Made by a program: the position numbers and the translations under genes. Positions 1 through 17,705 of a stretch of DNA of 20,000 bases are shown here, piece after piece. How positions within the stretch are numbered: the first letter of the stretch is position 1; each line of letters starts with the position of its first letter. The DNA is taken from positions 2,461,488 through 2,481,487 of the forward strand of contig NC_057756.1 of the NCBI RefSeq assembly GCF_004010195.1. Reading direction: 5' to 3'. The notes below the pieces were generated by a model. It saw only the letters and a program-made list of their open reading frames with translations, searched no databases and was not told the DNA's origin. The stretch comes from Chiloscyllium plagiosum (taxonomy: Eukaryota).

Positions 1-70
1 ATACTGCCGTGTTTGTACTGTAAATAGTTAGTTGAACTTGGAAACAAGTTATATAATTTGTCTCCTGCAG

Positions 71-91
71 AACACAAGAAATGCAAAGAAG
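71..91 (+). CDS. 21-nt heptad microexon of a putative butyrophilin/BG-like coiled-coil tail (xHKKCKE)
   Basis: ttgtctcctgcAG|aacacaagaaatgcaaagaag|GTaagc: strong acceptor and donor, exactly 21 nt, open in phase 1. Confidence 0.8.
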
Positions 92-779
92 GTAAGCGTT
101 ACACAAATTTTGATGACTAGCGAAGTGAATATTTCCTCAACTGTGATCAAAATTCATCCTCCAAGGCACGCCTCCGAATCACCATTAATTCTAGTTCTGG
201 TCGTCATTTTAATTTAATATTATTTAATGTAACTTCTGTCACACATCTCTGCCTGCGGCCCAAGACAGACACATGTTAAAAGATAGAACTGTTGTGGTTC
301 TGTTCGCCGAGATGGGAGTTTGTATTGCAGATGTACTCGTTCATAGTATGACAAAAGCAGCTAGAGCCCGTGAAATGACGAAATTGTTGAAACGTTTCAG
401 AAGAATCGCAGATGCCAGTGGGATGAGCATGTACTGGGCTCGAAAAAGTCTCAAGTCGATATCGGCTACTCCTCATGTCCTTGCCAGTTTGCGATCTCAA
501 AACATTTGTAATGTAAAGGTTTCTATTTGTTGTGGGAGATCCCATTTCCAAGTACCAGCAAAGACAAGCAAAATGACGGAACTTCATAATGAATATATAA
601 AGTTTTGTTGAGTTTCATTTTCATACAGTTCATTAAAACACGAAGAATGGGAAAATACATGTGTTTATTTTTTTCCTAAATCGCGACATTCAGTTCTATC
701 TTTTTGAAAGTTTGTGAGAAGATTTGTAGCTCGGATGTTCGTTGTTGTGGTTCTGTTTGCCGAGATGGGATTTTGTGTT

Positions 780-819
780 GCAGACGTTTCGTCCCCTGTC
801 TAGGTGACATCCTCAGTGC
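780..819 (-). ncRNA. Minimal type I hammerhead ribozyme motif (PLE pLTR)
   Basis: Minus strand reads gca-CUGAGGA-u-gucaccu agac aggggac-GAAAC-GUC-ugc: core intact, stem II with one mismatch, 3-bp stem I, palindromic ACGU in place of helix III. Confidence 0.75.
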
Positions 820-930
820 TTGGGAGCCTCCTGTGAAGTGCTTCTGCGATGTTTCCTCCGGCATGTATGTTTGTCTCCACTATAAATGCCGGAGGAAACA
901 TCACAGAATCGCTTCACAGGAGTCTGCCAA

Positions 931-970
931 GCACTGAGGATGTCACCTAGACAGAGAACGAAACGTCTGC
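931..970 (+). ncRNA. Minimal type I hammerhead motif, stem II partly decayed
   Basis: CTGAGGA 934-940, GAAAC 960-964, GTC 965-967; two stem II substitutions relative to the mirror copy. Confidence 0.65.
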
Positions 971-1769
971 AACACAAAATCCCAGCTCGGCAAACAGAAC
1001 CACAACAACGAACATCCGAGCTACAAATCTTCTCACAAACTTTGAAAAAGATAGAACTGAATGTCGCGATTTGGGAAAAAAATAAACACATGTATTTTCC
1101 CATTCTTCGTTGTTTAACTGAACCGTATGAAAATGAAACTCAACAAAACTTTATATATTCATTATAAAGTTCCATCATTTTGCTTGTCTTTGCTGGTACT
1201 TGGAAATTGGATCGCCCACAACAAATAGAAACCTTTACATTACAAATGTTTTGAGATTGCAAACTGGCAAGGACATGAGGAGTAGCCAATATCGACTTGA
1301 GATTTTTTCGAGCCCAGCACATGCTCATCCCACTGACATCTGCGATTCTTCTGAAACTTTTCAACACTTTCGTTATTTCACGGGCTCTAGCTGCTTTTGC
1401 CATACTATGAACGAGTCCCACCTTGATCTGTTCACAGCAGTATGGTGAAAAATGTCTCCCAGTCTTTCTGAAGAAAGAAGGCTGAACATATCTACATTCA
1501 CGACCACCCTGCTCCACCAGATCGATCTTATTTAAATATTAAACAATTCGCTATTAAATACTCCAACTTTCTTCTGTTTAGAGATGTGGCCACGGGTACC
1601 TGCATTGACCCCAGTTATATCCATCTCTTTGCTGATTAACCGGCATATTCCTTGTTGCAGTTCTTCTATGACACTCAACTGCAGCTCAATAACGTAACTG
1701 GAACTGTTCTCCTCAAATAAATGGAATTAGAAATACATACCTGATTCATTTCCAATGTCCAACCCTCTT

Positions 1770-4865: not shown

Positions 4866-6144
4866 ATTAGCTTCATCGAGTCTTCGAGATATACAAAACG
4901 GCAACAGACCCTTTGGTCAAATCGTCAATGCCGACCAGATATCTCAAAATTATCTCTTCCCACTTTTCAAAAGCCATCCCATATCGCTCCAAACCCTTCT
5001 TATTCATTCACTCATCCAGATGCTTTTAAACGTTGCAATTGTATCAGCCTCCACCACTTCGTCTGGCAGTTTGTTCCATGCTCACACGACCCTCTGTGAA
5101 AACGTCACCCCTCAGGTTGCTTTTATAACGTTCCATGCACCCTACGTGATTGCACTCCAGTTCTGGACACCTCCACCCCAGGGAAAATTCCTTGCCCATT
5201 TACCATATGCATGCCCTTCAGATTTCATTAACTTCTATTCGGTCACGCCTCAGCTTCTGAGCCTCCAGGGAAAACGGCCATAATCTATTCAAACTCTCCC
5301 GATAGTTCAAATCCTCCTATCCTGGCACTATCCTTGTAAATCGTTTGGCAGAACATACTTCCGATCAGAAAAAGACAAGAATTGCACACAATATTCCAGA
5401 AGTGGCCGAATCAATATCCTGTACACCCTCAGCATGATCTCCTAACTACTTTACAAAATATACAGAACAACAAAGAAAAGCATACCAAATGCTTTCTTAA
5501 CTGTACTATCTACTTGTGACATTATTTTCAAGGAGGTATGAGCCTCACGCCAAGGTCTCTTTGATTAGCAACACTCCCGAGGACGTTATCATGAAGTGTA
5601 TAAGGCATGCTAAGATTTGCTTACCCAAAACGAAATTTATCTGTATTAAACTCCATCTGCCACTACTTATCCCTTCTGTCTATCTAATCAAGATTACGTT
5701 ACAATCTGAGTTAACCTTCTTCGTTGTTCACGATAGCTACAATTTTGGTGTCATCTGCAAACTTGCTATCTATACCGCTTCTGCTCCCATCCAAATCATT
5801 TGCGTAAATGATGGAAAGTAATTGACCCAGTACCAATCCTTGTGGCCCTCCATTGGTCACAGGCTTCCAGTCAGAAAAAACAACTCTCCACGACCACCCT
5901 CTGTCTTCTAACTTACAGCCAGTTATGTATCAAAATAGGCAGTTGTCCTTGCATTCTATGAGATCTAATCTTGCTAATCAGTCTCCCATGGGGAAACTTG
6001 TCAAACGCCTTATGGAAGTCCATTGAGATAGCGTCCACCACTCTTCCCTTATCAATCCTCTTTGTTACTTCTTCAAAAAACTCAATCAACTTCGTGAGAC
6101 ATGTTTTCCCATGCACAACGCCAAGTTGACTATATCTAATCAGT

Positions 6145-6354
6145 GCTGAAAACGTGTTGCTGGAAAAGCGCAGCAGGTCAGGCAGCATCCAAGGAGCAAT
6201 AGAATCGACGTTTCGGGCATGAGCCCTTCTTCAGGCTCATGTCCGAAACGTCGATTCTCCTGCTCCTTGGATGCTGCCTGATCTGCTGCGCTTTTCTAGC
6301 AACACATTTTCAGCTCTGATCGCCAGCATCTGCAGTCCTCACTTTCTCCTCGAA
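6145..6354. mobile_element. PLE pLTR fold-back insertion (81-bp arms 6145-6225 and 6234-6314, 8-nt loop) nested in CR1 RT
   Basis: 11-bp TSD atctaatcagt (6134-6144 and 6355-6365); minus-strand hammerhead core CUGAAGA-agggc-ucau-gccc-GAAACGUC at 6207-6234; same family as 8744-8870. Confidence 0.9.
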
Positions 6355-8737
6355 ATCTAATCAGTCCTCGCCTTTCTAAATACATGAAAATTCCTGTCCC
6401 ACAGGATTCATTCCAGCAACTGGCCAGCCATCGACGTCAACCCCACTGGTTTATTGTTCCCTGATTTGTTCTTACCACTTGTCTTAAATATTAAAACCAC
6501 GTCAGCCAACGTCCAGTCGTTCGGCACCACCCCGCGCCCCATGACTATTAATGATATCAATATTTCGGAAAGGGGCCCAACAATCACTTCCCTACCTTCT
6601 CACGGAGTTCTAGGTTACACCTGATCAGGTCCCGGGGTTTTATGTATTTCTTGACATTCAGCACTTCCTCCTCTGTAATATGGACATTTTTCAAGATGTC
6701 ACAATCTATTGCCTGGCTATCTGCCAAGTCCTCCTCCACAGTACACACTGATACAAAGTGCTCGTTTAGTATGTCCCCCAACTCCTGCGGCTTCACATAA
6801 AGACCGCCTTGCAGATCATTGAAGGGCCTTATTTTCTACTGAGTTAACATTTTGTCTTCAATTTCTTTGCAAAAAGCCTTAAGATTATCGTAAACCCTAT
6901 TTACCAAAGTTAACTCATGTCATCTCATTGCACTCTTGATTTTTTTCTTAAGTGTACTCCAACAGCCTTAGACTCTTCTATGTATTCACTCGATCTATCC
7001 TCTCGATCCTTGATACATGCTTCCTTCTTTTTCGTAGCGAATCCTTATATTTTTCCACTCATCCAAATTTCCCTACACCTGTCAGCCCTTCCTTTCACTG
7101 TAACAGGAATGCACTACGTCTTGACTCTTCTTATCCATTTCTGAATGATTCCCATTTTCCAGCTGTCCCTTTATGTGCGAACATCTGCCCGCAATCAGCC
7201 CTTGAAATTTCAGGGACATCAAAATGAGCCTTCCTCCAATTCAGAATTTCAACGTTTAGATATGATCCATTCTTTTGCATCACTTTCTGAAAAACTAATG
7301 GGATTACAGTTGCTGGCCCTAAACTGCTCCCCCACGGACACCTCCGCCAGCTGCCCTGCCTTATTGCCCAAGGGTAGGTCAGGTTTTCCAACTTCTATCT
7401 GGCAGTTACATCACATAGTGAATAAGAAAATTTTCTTTCACATCCTTAACAAATTCCTCTCCATCTTAACCCTTAATGCTGCGGCAGTGGCAGTTTATGT
7501 TTGGAAAGTTAACGCCACCCTATTATTATGACACACAACTGAAATCTCTTTACAAAATTTTTTATCAATTACCGCCTGACAATTAGGGGGTCTATAATAC
7601 AATCTCGATGAGGTGGACCCCGCTTTGCTATTTTTCAGTTCTACCCATACAAATTTCCTGGATGTACTTGCAGGAATATTCTCCATAAGTACAGCTGTAA
7701 CGCTATCCTTTATCAAAAACGCCACTCCCCCTCCTCTCTTGCCTCCCGTTCTATACTTGTGGTAGCATTTGCATCCTGGAACATTTACCTGCCAGTACTG
7801 TCCATCGCTCAGCTGCGTTTCTGTATTTGCTGTGATAAGATAAAGGAACCATGGACGACAAGAACAGAGGAGCTTCTCGTCAAAAGGAAGAAGGCAGCTT
7901 ACTTAAGGTTGAAGAAGCAAGGACAGCTTTCGAGGATTAGAGGCTTTCTAGAACGGAGCTCAGAAATGGACTGAGGACAGCCAGGAGGGGGCACGAAAAA
8001 GGATGGCAAATAGGATTAGGGAGAACCCAAAGGCAGTTTACTCTTACGTGAGGAATAAGAGAATGATCAGGGGGAATATAGGGCCGATCAAGGATAGGCT
8101 AGGGAACTTGTGCGTGTAGTCTGAGCAGTTGCTTCAGTTTTCTCCAAAGAAAGGGATCTTGCTGTGAATGAGAATTTTCAGGAGCTTGGATGCAGACTTG
8201 ACCTGATCAAGATTGATGAAGTTGCTGTGCTAGAAAATTTTGAAAACATTAAGGTTGATAAGTCCCCAGAGCCAGACCAGATTTATCCTAGGCTACTCCG
8301 GGAAGCAAGAAAGGACGTTCCTAAGCCACTGGCAAAAATCTTTGCGTCCTTACTCTCCGTGGGATTCGTAGCAGAGGATTGGAAGGAGACGAATTTTGTT
8401 CCTCTTTTCAAGAAATATTAATGGGGAAATCCCTGGCAATTACAGACCAGCCAGTCTTACGTTTGAGGTCAGCAAAAGTTTGGAAAGAATTCTGAGGGAT
8501 AGCATCTATGACCATTTGGCAAAACATAGCATTATTAAAGACAATAAGCATGGCTTTGTGAGAGGAAATTCATGCCTCAAAAATCTTAATGAGTTCTTCG
8601 AGCAGGTGACAAGTCAGTTCGAGCAGTGTATGTGGTGTATATGGATTTCAGCAAGGCACTTGATTAGTTTCCCCATGGTAGGATCATTCATAATGTTAGG
8701 AAGTATGGGATACAGGGAGATTTAGCTATCTGGGTTC

Positions 8738-8778
8738 AGAATTCCTGATGAAGGGCGTATGCCCGAAACGTCGATTCT
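8738..8778 (+). ncRNA. Minimal type I hammerhead ribozyme, core intact
   Basis: agaauuc-CUGAUGA(8745-8751)-a-GGGC guau GCCC-GAAAC-GUC(8770-8772)-gauucu; stem I 6 bp with one bulge; predicted cleavage after C8772. Confidence 0.8.
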
Positions 8779-8870
8779 CCTGTTCTTTTGATGCTGCCTG
8801 ACCTGCTGCTTTTTTCCAGCAACACATTTTTAAGCTCTGATCGCCAGCATCTGCAGTCCTCACTTTCTCC
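8744..8870 (+). mobile_element. 127-bp PLE 3' end (pLTR) insertion inside the plus-strand CR1
   Basis: 9-bp TSD ttcagaatt (8735-8743 and 8871-8879); sequence matches 6234-6350. Confidence 0.9.
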
Positions 8871-10709
8871 TTCAGAATTGATTGGTTGACAGAGGGCAGA
8901 GATTGGTTGTAAATGGGAAGTATTGTGCCTCGAGGTCAGTGTTCAGTGGGGTCCCACAGTGCTCTGTTATTGGGTCTTTGCTCTTCATAATTTTCATAAA
9001 TGACTTGGATGAGGAGATTGAGTGGTGGGTTAGTAAATTTGCAGATAACACAAAGGTTGGAGGGGTCGTCGATATTAACGTGGCTATTTCAGGCTGCAGC
9101 GTGACATATACAGGATGCGGAGCTGGGCTGAGATATGGCAGATGGAGTTCAACTGGATCGGTCCAAAGTGATGCATTTTGGAGTGTCAAACTGAAATGCT
9201 CAATATAGATTTAAAGACAGGATTCTTTGTAGCGTGAAGGAACAGAGGGATCTGGGTGTGTAAGTACATAGATCCCTCAAAGTTGCCAACCAAGTGGATA
9301 TGGTTGTTAAGAAAGCATATGGTATTTTGGCTTTTATTAGCACGGGGATCGAGTTTAAGAGTTGCGAGGTTTTGCGACAGCACTACAAGTCCCTGGTGAG
9401 ACCACACTTGGAATCTTGTGTCCAGTTGTGGTCGCCCTACTATAGGAAAGATGCAGAGACTTTGAAGAGGGTGCAAAGAAGATTTACCAGGATGCTGCCT
9501 GGACTGGTGGGCTTGCCTTTTGAAGAAAGGTTCAGTAGGCATAGAGTTTTATCTCTGGAGAGAAGGAGGAAGAGAGGAGACCTGATCAATGTATACAAGA
9601 TAATGAGAGGAATGGATAGAGTCAATAGCCAGAGACTTTTCTGCAGGGCATGGTTCATGTGTATGAGGGGTCATGGTTTTAACGTATTAGGGGAAAGATA
9701 TAAAGGAGACGCCAGAAGTAGGTTCTTTACACAGATAGTTGTGAATGCTTGTAATGCGTTGCCAGCGGTGGTGCTGGAAGCAGAGTCATTAGGGACATTT
9801 AAGCGAATGCTGGACAGGTACATGGAGAGCAGTGGTTTGATGGTTGCGTAGGTTAAGTTATTATATTTTACGTTAGGATTAAAGCTCGGCACAGTATCAT
9901 GTGCGGATGGGCCTGATCTGTGCTATACATTTCTATGATCCACGTTCTTGTTCGATATCCCAGTTCTATGTTCCTAACCATGCCTTGAGTTCATCTGACT
10001 TCCCTGAAGTAAATGCAGTTTAGTTTATCAGTCTTATCTTGTTCTCTAATTTGTCACTGACTACTTGACTCGCTTCTTTTCTCAACTGTAAAAATTTCAG
10101 ATTTTTCTCTTTCCACACTATCTCCTGGAGTAACCCACCACCTTATTAGTTTAAATTCTCCCCCAGCAGCTGCAGCAAATCTTCCTCCCAGTATATTAGC
10201 CCACGCTCAAATCAGGTGCAACACTTCTTTTTTGTGCAGATCACTTCTATGCCAGAAGGAATTCTCAGTGTCCAAAATTGTGAATCCTTCTCCTATACAC
10301 CAGCTACACAGCTATGCATGTATCTGCTCTGTAGTCCTATTCCTCCCCTTAGTTATTTTTAGCACCAGAAATAATCTAGTTATCACTGCCTTCGAGGACC
10401 TCTTTTTTATTTTCATTTCTTCTGAACTTTCTACTCTCTCCCATCAGAATCTCACAATTTTTCCCATTCTATGTCATTCGTTCCAATGTATAAAATAACC
10501 TCTTGCTGGTGTCTCTCCCATTTGAGAACATTTTGTACCCCTTCTGAGACATCCTTGATCCTGAAATACACAATTCTGATTTTTCGTTGCTGCCCACAGA
10601 AACATCTGCCTGTGCCTCTGACAAGAGAGTCCCTCACATAATCGATAGTTGGAGCCTGAATTACATTCAATACTGTCGAGCCTGTCTCTGTGCCAGAAAC
10701 TTGGCTGTT

Positions 10710-11698
10710 AGAACATAGAACATAGAAAAATACAACGCAGTACAGGCCCTTTGGCCCTCGATGTTGCGCCGATCCAAGCCCACCTAACATACACTAGCCC
10801 ACTATCCTCCATATGCCTATCCAATCCCCGTTTAAATGTCCATAAAGAGGGTGAGTCCACCACTGCTACTGGCAGGGCATTCCATGAACTCACGACTCGC
10901 TGAGTAAAGAATCTACTCCTAACATCTGTCCTATACCTACCACCCCTTAATTTAAAGCTATGCCCCTCGTAATAGCTGACTCCATACGTGGAAAAAGGTT
11001 CTCACGGTCAACCCTATCTAAACCCCTAATCATCTTGTACACCTCTATCACGTCACCTCTAAACCTTCTTTTCTCCAATGAAAATAGCCTCAAGTGCCTC
11101 AGCCTTTCCTCATACGATCTTCCTACCATATCAGGCAACATCCTGGTAAACCTCCTCTGCACCCGTTCCAGTGCCTCCACATCCTTCCTATAGTATGGCG
11201 ACCAAAACTGCACACAATACTCCAGATGCGGCCGCACCAGAGTCTTATACAACTGCAACATGACCTCAGGGCTTGGGAACTCAATTCCTCTACCAATAAA
11301 ATCCAGTATGCCATATGCCTTCATTACTGCACTATTTACCTGGGTGGCAACTTCCAGAAATCTGTGTACATGGACACCAAGATCCCTCTGCTCATCCACA
11401 CTACCAAGTATCCGACCATTATCCCAGTACCCCATCTTTTTGTTACTCTTACCAAAGTGAATCACCTCACACTTACCTGCATTGAACTCCATTTGCCACC
11501 TTTCTGCCCAGCTCTGCAACTTATCTATATCCCGCTGTAACCTGACACATCCTTCCTCACTGTCAACAACTCCACCGACTTTCGTATCATCCGCAAACTT
11601 GCTCACGAAATCTTCTAGCCCCTCCTCCAGTTCATTTATAAAAATGACAAACAGCAATGGTCCCAAAACAGATCCTTGCGGAACACTGCTACATTCCC
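10710..11698 (-). mobile_element. Young 5'-truncated CR1 LINE with an uninterrupted RT C-terminal reading frame
   Basis: ORF 10947-11732 has VPQGSVLGPLLFVIFIN..KFADDTK..LVRPHLEYCVQFWSP; (TTCTATG)n tail at 10710-10727; 5-bp TSD ctgtt (10705-10709 and 11699-11703). Confidence 0.95.
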
Positions 11699-14376: not shown

Positions 14377-14679
14377 TTTTAGATTACTTACAGCGTGGAA
14401 ACAGGCCCTTCGGCCCAACAAGTCCACACCGACCCGCCGAAGCGCACCCACCCAGACCCATTACCCTACACCAACCGTTAGGGGCAATTTATCATGGCAA
14501 ATTCACCTAATCTGCACGTTTTTTGGACTGTGGGAGGAAACCGGAACACGCGGAGGAAACGCACGCAGACACAGGGAGAATGTGCAAACTCCACACAAAC
14601 AGTCGCCTGAGGTGGGAATTGAACCCAGGTCTCTGGCGCTGTGAGGCATCAGTGATAACCACTGTACCATCGTGCCGCA
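14377..14679 (-). mobile_element. HE1-type tRNA-derived SINE
   Basis: Minus-strand Pol III A box tggtacagtgg (14659-14669) and B box ggttcaattcc (14615-14625), conserved central core, CR1-like tail ending gtaatctaaa; homologous to 15301-15600. Confidence 0.9.
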
Positions 14680-16130
14680 CACTCAATCCTGGAATATTTG
14701 GAATGCAAGGACACCTACTTGAACTTCTATTTATTCACTTAGTTCCAATTTCAACATCATAATTTCAAAAAATCCGTTATCAAACTCCGAGATGGAAGAC
14801 TTTGCTCTTCTTCTGCAACTTGGCCTTTTACGGTATGGCCCACAGACTGCAATTCGCCAAGAGAGGTAACGGGATCTCCTCCACAATTATCTTCAACACC
14901 GCTGCCCTGCAAGGCTCCAGTAAAAAAAAATCCTCATACATTCCAGAACGTGTGGCCAAATTCAGCTCAAACTATATTTCAATAGATCTGAGGAAACCAC
15001 CTTTGTGGATCGTTAATTAAACAACAAGACAGAATATCGGAAAGAGAGCAACAGCTTTCTGGCATGGTGTGAGGACAACAATCTGTCCTTCAATGGCAGC
15101 AAAACAACGGTGCCAATAGTCAACTTCAGGAAGTGGATTAGATGACGCCACCATGTCCATACCAATGGTGTGAGATGGAAAAACTCGAGAGTTAGCAAGG
15201 ATTCATCTTTATCCAATCATTTCAACTACGCAATCAACAAAGCAAACCAAAGCCTTGAATTAGTCAAACGATTATGGAAAATCGGAATGGCCACAATAAT
15301 TGGATTAGATTCCCTACAGTATGGAAAAAGGGCCTTCGGCCCAACAAGTCCACACCAACCCTCCGAAGAGCAACCCACCCAGACCCGACATTTACCCCTG
15401 ACTAATGCACCTAACACTGTGGGCAATTTCGCAAGGTTAATTAAACTAATCTGCATACCTTTGAATTGTGGGAGAAATCTTGAGGAAATCCACGCTGACA
15501 CGGGGAGAACATAAAAACAGAGGTTCGGTCGAGGGCAGAATCAAACTTGGGTCCCTGGTGCTGTGAGGCAGCAATGCTAACCACTGAGGCACCGTGCCAC
15601 TCGCACTTTCACCTGGACTGTTGGATTTCTTCCCAGTGTTATAATCTCTATACCGCCACCACAGCTTCCTGTGTTGTTATTAATTATTACTTTTGTTGCA
15701 TATAATCTACAGACGACATCCTTTCTGGATTCGTGAAAGCTTGATATGGTAACTGCTCTATCCAAAACGGAAATAAAAATTACAGAGAAATGTTAACACA
15801 ATACACCCATCATGAAAACAGGCCTTCTTTCTGTGAAACCATCTATGCTTGCTGCTGTTTTGCTAAAGCAAGAAACATAAGCAAAGACCCCAACAAGCAC
15901 GTTTATAGACTCTTCCAAACTCTTTCAAAATTTAAAAAGCAACACTTGTCAACAGATTTAAAAACAGCCTATCCCGCGCTGTTATCAGACATAAGAAAGG
16001 ATATCTCATATTTTACATTTGATCTTTCTCTGCACCTTAAGTGGAGCTATAACTTTATATGCCATATTCTGTTGTCTTGCCCTCGTACACGTGAGTAAAC
16101 TCATTGTCTTGTGAGTGTGATGAAGTTTCA
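14680..16130 (+). mobile_element. Degenerate Rex1/Babar-like LINE RT and 3' end, interrupted by the SINE at 15301-15600; may extend left to about 14270
   Basis: Relics KDTY (about 14707), ISSTIIFNTAALQGS (ORF 14802), LAWCEDNNLSFNGSKT..VNFRK (15058-15133), YGNCS (about 15745), RFKNS (about 15954). Confidence 0.7.
15301..15600 (-). mobile_element. HE1-type tRNA-derived SINE, more diverged
   Basis: tRNA head gtggcacggtgcctcagtggttagcattgctgcctcacagc; tail ending gggaatctaatc; alignable to 14377-14679. Confidence 0.85.
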
Positions 16131-16289: not shown

Positions 16290-17705
16290 TTGTGTTTGAC
16301 CATGTCAACACAGCTTCTGAACATATTACAACGTATTTTAAATTTTCAACCATGGACAAAATAGGTAAATTCCTGACGGCAGTGAAAGATCTTGGAATAA
16401 AGGTCGCATTCGATCCAGTGTGGCATAAAATATCCCTCCAAAAACAGTTATGTATTTGTCTCAGAAGACAAACTCTCGACTGGTTGGAATTGTGCCATCG
16501 AAATAATATGACAGTTGGTGTGGATGTAAATCAATCTTGTCAGCGCCAATATATCGCTGCAGATTTACTCATGTGAATCGCTTTGGTCCATCCATATACA
16601 ACTCTTTTATCGATGAACTTACATGCATAGAACATAGAACATAGAGCATTGAAGAATACAGCGCAGTACAGGCCCTTTGGCCCTCGATGTTGCGCCGATC
16701 CAAGCCCACCTAACATACACTAGCCCATTATCCTCCATATGCCTATCCAATGCCCGCTTAAATGCCCATAAAGAGGGAGAGTCCACCACTGCTAATGGCA
16801 GGGCATTCCATGGACTCACGACTCGCTGAGTAAATATTATAATTTCAGAAAATTGGGTGGTAAAAGATTATTGTTCCATGCTCAGCACTACTTGCAAATT
16901 ATTTGACATTGAAGTAGTCTACGTTCTAAATCCAAGGAGCTTGGCAGTTGGCAAGTCAAATTTTCACCACTCAAATTTCAGGCAATGACAAACTGTTATA
17001 ACAGAATTTAACCATGATCCCTTGTATTTCAACGGTTCTACCGTGTTGCAGAAACATCCCCTATAAATAGTCTTCGGGCCACAACCTTCAGAAGCACACT
17101 ACATAAAACCAGCTACTTCAAAAGGAGTTTATACGCCATGAATACTGCAGTGAGTAACCTAACCTCTGGATTCCAACGCCTGACCACAGTCGACAACACC
17201 CATGTCAGGATCATCTTCGAAAATTAACTACTTTGGCTTAGTTGCAGCTTTAATAATGTTCAAGAAGCTTGAATCAAACCACCACAAAGTAACCCTGTTA
17301 TCGGCAACAATTCAATAAATAACTAATTCATTCACAAACGAAACTCAGTAGCAGAACTGGTCTCTCTACAAGATGCACTGCAGAATTTCATTCGTAGATA
17401 CTCAGCATTTTCCAAACATGCGACACTGATTAGTTACTGATTGCGACAGACACAGAGCAACATCACAACTTGCAATTCCCATCAAAGCGACTTCCATGGC
17501 GATTTGATATATTATCGCCATTCCTTCAATCCACTGGGTGAAAATCCTGGAATTCCCTCCTGACGTCATGGTGGACAAACCTACAGCACATAGAGTGCAA
17601 GAGTTCAAGTTTTCAGCTAACAACGAGTTCTCAAGTGGAATTAGGAACTAGCAAGAAGACTGGCCAGCAAGTGATGCCCACATCTCACGACTTTGTAACG
17701 AAAAT
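16290..17705 (+). mobile_element. Old CR1/L2-group LINE fragment (RT to 3' end), interrupted at 16626-16834
   Basis: ORF 16250 has LGIKVAFDPVWH..QTLDWLE (decayed LDIKAAFDRVWH) followed by a FIDEL relic at about 16606-16620; boundaries approximate. Confidence 0.65.
16626..16834 (-). mobile_element. Short 3' fragment of the young CR1 family
   Basis: Near-identical to 10710-10908 with a (TTCTATG)n tail. Confidence 0.95.

Follow-up and report, generated by a model that had tools for sequence, protein, structure and literature searches.

Endonuclease-positive Penelope-like elements (PLEs) are described as inserting in a recognisable unit, which consists of a 5'-truncated pLTR, an adjacent inverted copy, a 30-40 bp tail at one end and a TSD (PMC3846280, PMC8557442). 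For the anole PLE Poseidon, in vitro work reports that both target strands are cut and extended and that reverse transcription starts at two sites delimiting the tail; the joining of two cDNAs and the formation of host palindromes are not described in the accessible part of that report (PMC11167929). Inverted pLTRs, tails, snap-back junctions and template switches seeded by inverted repeats are all already known. No description of a PLE palindrome that subsequently grew into the flanking host DNA was found among titles and abstract openings, in a search with most subscription journals outside its coverage.

The insertion considered here lies in a window of 20,000 nucleotides from Chiloscyllium plagiosum, to which all positions refer. 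Compared with the canonical unit, as outlined in the accessible parts of PMC3846280 and PMC8557442, it is alike in its inverted tail-less and direct tailed ends, its 38-nt tail and its 14-bp TSD, as well as in its AT-rich target and minimal hammerhead motif. It differs in that 453 bp of reversed sequence, copied from the tail, the TSD and the host DNA downstream, split the inverted arm, and in that this insertion carries no ORF, the element part of the locus being the terminal 168 bp only. We consider that the palindrome probably arose in two steps, an ordinary insertion of an inverted plus a direct pLTR followed by a fold-back template switch which added the 453-bp reverse copy, and that the locus is unlikely to preserve the insertion reaction as such.

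Positions 335-1416 align with their own reverse complement at 94.0% identity over 1083 columns, so the 1.08-kb palindrome reported in the first-pass annotation is real. Of the arm segments, 335-640 and 1111-1416 match at 95% and 633-868 and 882-1117 at 94%, around a 13-nt loop at 869-881. The insertion is bracketed by an exact 14-bp direct repeat, as had been claimed: the left TSD, which starts with an A run after TT, at 278-291 and the right TSD at 1046-1059, both on the plus strand. A third, inverted copy (691-704, minus strand) lies within what we read as a later inverted insert. The direct, 5'-truncated pLTR occupies 878-1045 on the plus strand, its tail being 1008-1045. To its left, on the minus strand, 788-877 would be the inner remainder of the original inverted pLTR, while 705-787 appears to be a more recent copy, taken from the 3' part of the right pLTR together with its tail (705-742). 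Further out, 335-690 (minus strand) is an inverted copy of the low-copy host DNA at 1060-1416 (plus strand), and the self-alignment bears out the earlier statement that 704-335 copies 1046-1416. The outermost piece at 292-334 (minus strand), equivalent to 745-787, is read as the outer stub of the original tail-less copy. Its match extends to 290 (equivalent 743), and the short copy as a whole (290-334) is 91% identical to 743-787 and 89% identical to the reverse complement of 963-1007. Positions 290-291 lie within the TSD and form the 2-nt microhomology that had been noted at the target join.

The putative later insert comprises 335-704 and 705-787, the reverse complement of 963-1416 (minus strand); it has 19 substitutions in 453 positions, is flanked by 292-334 and 788-877, and has its inner boundary between 772 and 792. 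Divergence is 6.1% between the element arms (10 of 164 positions) and 4.6% between the host arms (17 of 371, and one gap).

Read depth separates the repeat from its surroundings. In the raw reads of run X9, counted in about 4 in 100 of the reads of that run, depth is about 14,500 on the pLTR against 0-1 on 1-270 and 0-2 on 361-690. The host copy therefore lies outside the repeat consensus, and 1046-1416 is locus-specific host DNA. At this depth the pLTR family would number roughly ten thousand copies or more. It includes at least two subfamilies, with alternative letters in about 46-49% of the reads at 769, 775 and 783 and in about 24% at 799, 805 and 812.

It is extremely unlikely that the structure is an assembly artefact or that 1046-1416 is part of the repeat consensus. 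An artefact would agree with the contig sets of runs X5 and X6 (two of the three sets compared), where 335-704 is almost uncovered, and with the lack of any listed record across the whole stretch. Yet the arms differ by 5%, many of the differences being transitions, and a 297-nt contig of run X1 equals 227-523 with zero differences and crosses both the 291/292 and 334/335 junctions, so that, as far as tested, the first-pass annotation was right to consider an artefact unlikely. X1 is possibly the source sample, and none of the listed pieces spans the whole stretch. Membership in the repeat consensus is contradicted by the depth of the flank and by the flanks of family reads, which agree at only 0.4.

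The whole structure is most likely an inert scar, a single locus with no known function. A Pfam search of all six frames of 1046-2900 found no families. The minus strand of 1046-2850 has stop-riddled frames with a likeness to a decayed LTR-retrotransposon gag/protease region, which is a by-eye likeness only, since no Pfam family was found in the six frames.

The ends of the insertion correspond to those of the family. Among the loose ends listed for X9, family reads break into unrelated flanks at 707 (4177 reads, flank agreement 0.4), which marks the tail end of the pLTR, and again at 742/743 (978 and 1232 reads, agreement 0.36 and 0.35). The outer ends of the insertion are one of each class, tailed and tail-less, 38 nt apart, and this spacing is the 30-40 bp tail of PLEs. 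The two end classes would match the two reverse transcription starts that the accessible part of the Poseidon report describes (PMC11167929). Together with the TSD, these features support the assignment of the element to the Penelope-like pLTRs, as judged from sequence.

A scan for the minimal hammerhead pattern found core and closing motifs at 934 on the plus strand and 816 on the minus strand. The plus-strand copy (931-970) is a predicted minimal type I ribozyme with its core at 934, a short stem I, no stem III loop and a predicted cut after 967; its mirror copy has the core at 816. Such a layout is described for PLE terminal repeats in what is accessible of PMC4209133. Rfam gave 11 matches, none at the gathering score and none to a hammerhead, those over the palindromes being miRNA hairpin models. 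Minimum free energy folding did not recover the motif in either copy, and the two were no better than shuffled sequences (z 1.54 and -0.15). In exact-pattern scans the pLTR core was absent from both viral and metagenome contigs (0 matches in each).

The short copy and the loop at the centre bear most directly on how the inverted arm was made. According to the first-pass annotation, one cDNA snapped back, ran into host DNA, returned to cDNA for 43 nt (292-334) and was joined to the target by the 2-nt microhomology; the locus would then be direct evidence for a fold-back origin of PLE inverted ends. The geometry fits, and next to the 334/335 junction the host hexamer has a perfect match in the right arm (956-961 against 1409-1414): owing to the private letter of the right arm at 957, the host hexamer agrees with the right arm in 6 of 6 positions and with the left arm in 5 of 6, which mildly favours the template proposed there. 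However, a second copy of the cDNA should carry its letters at the equivalents of 758 and 771, and both are absent. The short copy lacks the two arm-shared letters in its span: at the 758 equivalent it has the family letter, and at the 771 equivalent one that differs from both arms. Its outer end coincides with the equivalent of 743, the tail-less end of the family, 38 nt from the tailed end. It is therefore an ordinary inverted-pLTR outer end rather than an arbitrary rejoining point, and under a single snap-back this coincidence with a fixed family end would be due to chance. Reading 292-334 as a second cDNA copy is thus not sustained.

At the centre, the left arm contains 9 nt of the element (869-877) beyond the point where the right arm stops. 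Behind 868 the family reads continue with 4 letters absent from the window and then 9 letters equal to window 869-877. Compared with antisense upstream family sequence, 869-877 matches at 9 of 9 positions against the loose-end consensus of X5 and X6 and at 7 of 9 against X9. As this segment is antisense and missing from the right arm, a simple snap-back could not have copied the loop, unless the centre was trimmed later. A snap-back would leave an inverted copy made of retained cDNA only, with a loop that reads as cDNA; here the loop does not read so, and a later deletion at the centre could rescue such a reading. The description of 877-705 as a copy of the cDNA thus holds for the match between the arms and fails at 869-877. 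We infer that two separately primed cDNAs joined end to end would give the antisense loop directly. Such a join resembles L1 twin priming as treated in the accessible part of bioRxiv 10.1101/2024.08.27.596794, and a literature search for Penelope together with twin priming, judged by titles and abstract openings, returned no paper on the topic.

Other loci of the family also turn near 861-881, with different centres: an X1 contig lacks the 9 letters from 869, another has a 3-letter gap at 874, and 4 X9 reads have 1-letter gaps near the pLTR turn, inverted pairs with such a centre being recurrent.

The letters shared by the arms and those private to one of them were then compared. Sites in 705-868 were polarised by the family majority in the reads, using the best-supported 40 of 96 rows; at unlisted sites the left arm was taken as the family letter, an assumption behind five of the letters called private to the right arm. 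Four derived letters (735, 738, 758 and 771) are common to the two arms, each of them found in about 2-9% of family reads. All four lie in 705-787, a segment with two private differences, whereas 8 of the 10 private differences and none of the shared letters lie in 788-868 (Fisher p 0.015). Of the nine derived letters of the right arm, all four in the outer part are shared and none of the five in the inner part (p 0.008). The arms diverge at 8 of 81 inner positions against 19 of 453 outer positions including the host DNA (p 0.048). The similar divergence of about 5% in the element and flank parts, earlier taken as consistent with one event, is correct on average and hides this difference.

With two parameters in each model, the maximised Poisson likelihood ratio of two steps over one is 74 at boundary 787, a boundary fixed by the end of the short copy. 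Ten boundaries were tried: those from 771 to 792 gave ratios of 41-89, and no other exceeded 35 (permutation p 0.0035). These tests draw on 14 sites, some of which had been looked at before the two-step idea took shape. The fit puts change per lineage at about 5.8% since the insertion and 2.1% since the duplication. The pattern switches within 772-792, which brackets 787, as expected if the polymerase returned to its departure point. A snap-back would give one age and the private letters of the cDNA to all copied parts; here the shared letters are limited to 705-787 and missing from the short copy, and the inner arm is twice as divergent. A rare source subfamily with all four shared letters could be an alternative source of them. 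A derived letter at 765 (equivalent 312) is common to the short copy and the left arm and absent from the right arm, a pattern which needs a parallel change or reversion under the two-step reading. The one-cDNA snap-back, which leaves both the antisense loop and the age difference between the inner and outer arms unexplained, is strongly disfavoured, and we regard it as highly improbable; the letter pattern, the end of the short copy and the antisense loop also speak against a single event and against the locus as direct evidence for fold-back insertion. What stands of the fold-back proposal is that DNA-templated synthesis along the bottom strand most likely made the host copy, though, by the letter pattern, probably not in one event during insertion.

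In the two-step reading, the element would first have entered a TT/AAAA site. There the cDNA that runs from 1045 to 878 would have been primed by one target end at the tailed start, and a second cDNA, now seen as 292-334 and 788-877, by the other target end at the tail-less start; the ends of the two would have been joined at the centre with an overlap of about 1 nt. Once the copies had drifted from the family by about 3-4%, a nascent bottom strand that crossed the small palindrome during host DNA synthesis may have folded back and paired, at about 772-792, with the right-arm copy it carried. With itself as template, it would have been extended over the tail, the TSD and the host DNA as far as 1416, before it resumed on the original left arm at 787, where an imperfect 5-of-6 microhomology lies nearby. 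The mechanism of the first step we infer from a structure that is itself observed, and the second step from the shared and private letters. The 334/335 junction retains host letters over the 5-of-6 match, a match which 2.2% of host positions offer, and these letters may fit synthesis along the bottom strand, as weak support. As in a template switch, the inserted fragment is the reverse complement of nearby sequence and is followed by a return to the original template. No intermediate allele, with the small palindrome and without the host copy, was seen in the contigs and reads compared over 1-900.

A single insertion could also have involved a PLE dimer priming both target ends on two RNAs, with the tailed cDNA folding back to copy 371 bp of the chromosome. 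The top-strand end would make 43 nt from the tail-less start, and strand displacement would be followed by a microhomology join to this short cDNA. Such a course accounts for the tail-less left end and for a short copy without the shared letters, and it has precedents, in the accessible parts of the reports, in R2 snap-back synthesis on cDNA or nearby target DNA (PMC11371274) and in templated local insertions and foldbacks at L1 (PMC11702581; bioRxiv 10.1101/2024.08.27.596794). On the other side, shared letters in the outer arm only and private letters in the inner arm are left unexplained (likelihood ratio about 70), and the antisense loop requires an extra deletion at the centre. We consider this course unlikely, although it deserves to be kept in mind. 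R2 snap-back 5' junctions (PMC11371274) and L1 templated insertions or foldbacks (PMC11702581; bioRxiv 10.1101/2024.08.27.596794) contain reverse-complement copies of cDNA or target inside the insertion, as does the present locus; as far as those reports are accessible, the copies arise during insertion, the L1 templates in the tumour set being usually <250 bp and near the site, whereas here the letter pattern dates the host copy later. If the two-RNA course were true, PLEs themselves would make long host palindromes, which are later purged from the population by deletion.

Gene conversion between arms is known in palindromes. In a structure formed in one event at insertion, conversion could later have overwritten 335 to about 780 with the right arm, resetting the outer clock, and this fits the shared and private letters as well as two steps do. 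It would, however, call for a pair of rare events, where the two-step course needs a single rare one besides a common one, and the tract would have to take in all of the host arm and happen to stop inside the 21-base interval (772-792) that surrounds the end of the short copy, so we hold it to be distinctly unlikely.

An RNA template for the 453-bp insert can be given little credence as well: a read-through transcript of the direct pLTR, cut by the hammerhead after 967, would have served reverse transcription at a nick in the adjacent inverted arm, with 330-334 and 783-787 as the resulting 5-bp duplication. The predicted cut (equivalent 782/783) does lie inside 772-792 and 5 nt from the insertion point. 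Yet poly(A) is absent, as is any primer match at 334/1416, and PLE reverse transcriptase starts at fixed pLTR sites, hammerhead cleavage being dispensable in vitro in the accessible part of PMC11167929.

The second step of the two-step reading corresponds to the four-point template switch of the 1-4-3-2 / 3-2-1-4 type, in which a reverse-complement template is used, the strand returns and an inverted repeat is made (PMC5453318, in its accessible part). With ODIRA, as presented in the accessible part of PMC4689423, it shares a pre-existing inverted repeat as seed. The copied piece of about 450 bp is longer than the tens of bases of the four-point study (PMC5453318) and far below ODIRA amplicons (PMC4689423), and the seed here is a palindrome made by a retroelement, unlike the cases set out in the accessible parts of both reports. 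The four-point study, in the same accessible part, favours switches between strands (PMC5453318), whereas the junction here fits a fold-back of the bottom strand.

Some individuals appear to carry an allele without the palindrome. A 1944-nt contig of X5 matches 1-256 and continues with 1535 letters without a further listed match; a contig of X6 likewise leaves the window after 256, with 78 further letters. X1 forks at 256/257, the path of the window having depth 3 of 6.9. Neither X5 nor X6 covers 257-270, 421-510 and 601-690, although contig gaps alone prove no absence. The words of 1046-2850 are present at 0.62-0.73 in the four runs of study P2 against 0.85-0.89 in the four of study P1. A deletion allele reaching from 257 to near or beyond 1416, which removes both host copies together with the palindrome, is likely; as a third step of the proposed history, with one breakpoint seen, it would have removed the whole palindrome in other individuals. 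Our guess for the right breakpoint is a 5-bp microhomology ending at 1512, which would leave 0.74 of the words against the 0.72-0.73 observed; there are four other candidate microhomologies of 4-5 bp.

The allele diverging at 257 is not the empty site because its divergence starts 21 bases before the TSD. A search of sequencing runs gave 14 runs, all from one organism; 8 of them contain the flank, which appeared in no other species, and no relative with an empty site came up. Contigs and reads were compared in 4 of the 14 runs and over window 1-900. The joint expected of an empty site (291 to 690 on the other strand) was absent among the 15 of 59 joints listed.

If the two-step reading is true, small PLE palindromes can seed an inverted duplication of host DNA long after their formation, and one locus records the birth, growth and probable loss of a palindrome. 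With its outer end at the second reverse transcription start and its antisense loop, the locus speaks for priming at both target ends rather than for snap-back. As for how PLE inverted ends form, the locus offers a simple genome-scale test, because the orientation of the loop can be counted in a family that likely has more than ten thousand copies. The locus itself is one fossil, informative on the formation of PLE ends and on palindrome dynamics, and it does not prove fold-back insertion directly.

A second PLE family in the window has an inverted tail-less arm, an 8-nt loop and a direct arm with a tail of about 33 nt at 6134-6365, within an 11-bp TSD (6134-6144 and 6355-6365). This pair shows the canonical inverted tail-less plus direct tailed layout and was counted in favour of the two-step reading. 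It presumably sits inside a CR1-type LINE remnant. A solo, 5'-truncated copy of the same family at 8735-8879 starts at the hammerhead motif and has an 8-9 bp TSD; it interrupts what we take to be a CR1-type RT frame. The segments at 8963-9835, 10709-11672, 16635-16841, 14379-14676 and 15305-15598 are presumably CR1-type LINE fragments in both orientations, a duplicated LINE 3' end and two SINE-like copies. The duplicated LINE 3' end has 93-94% identity.
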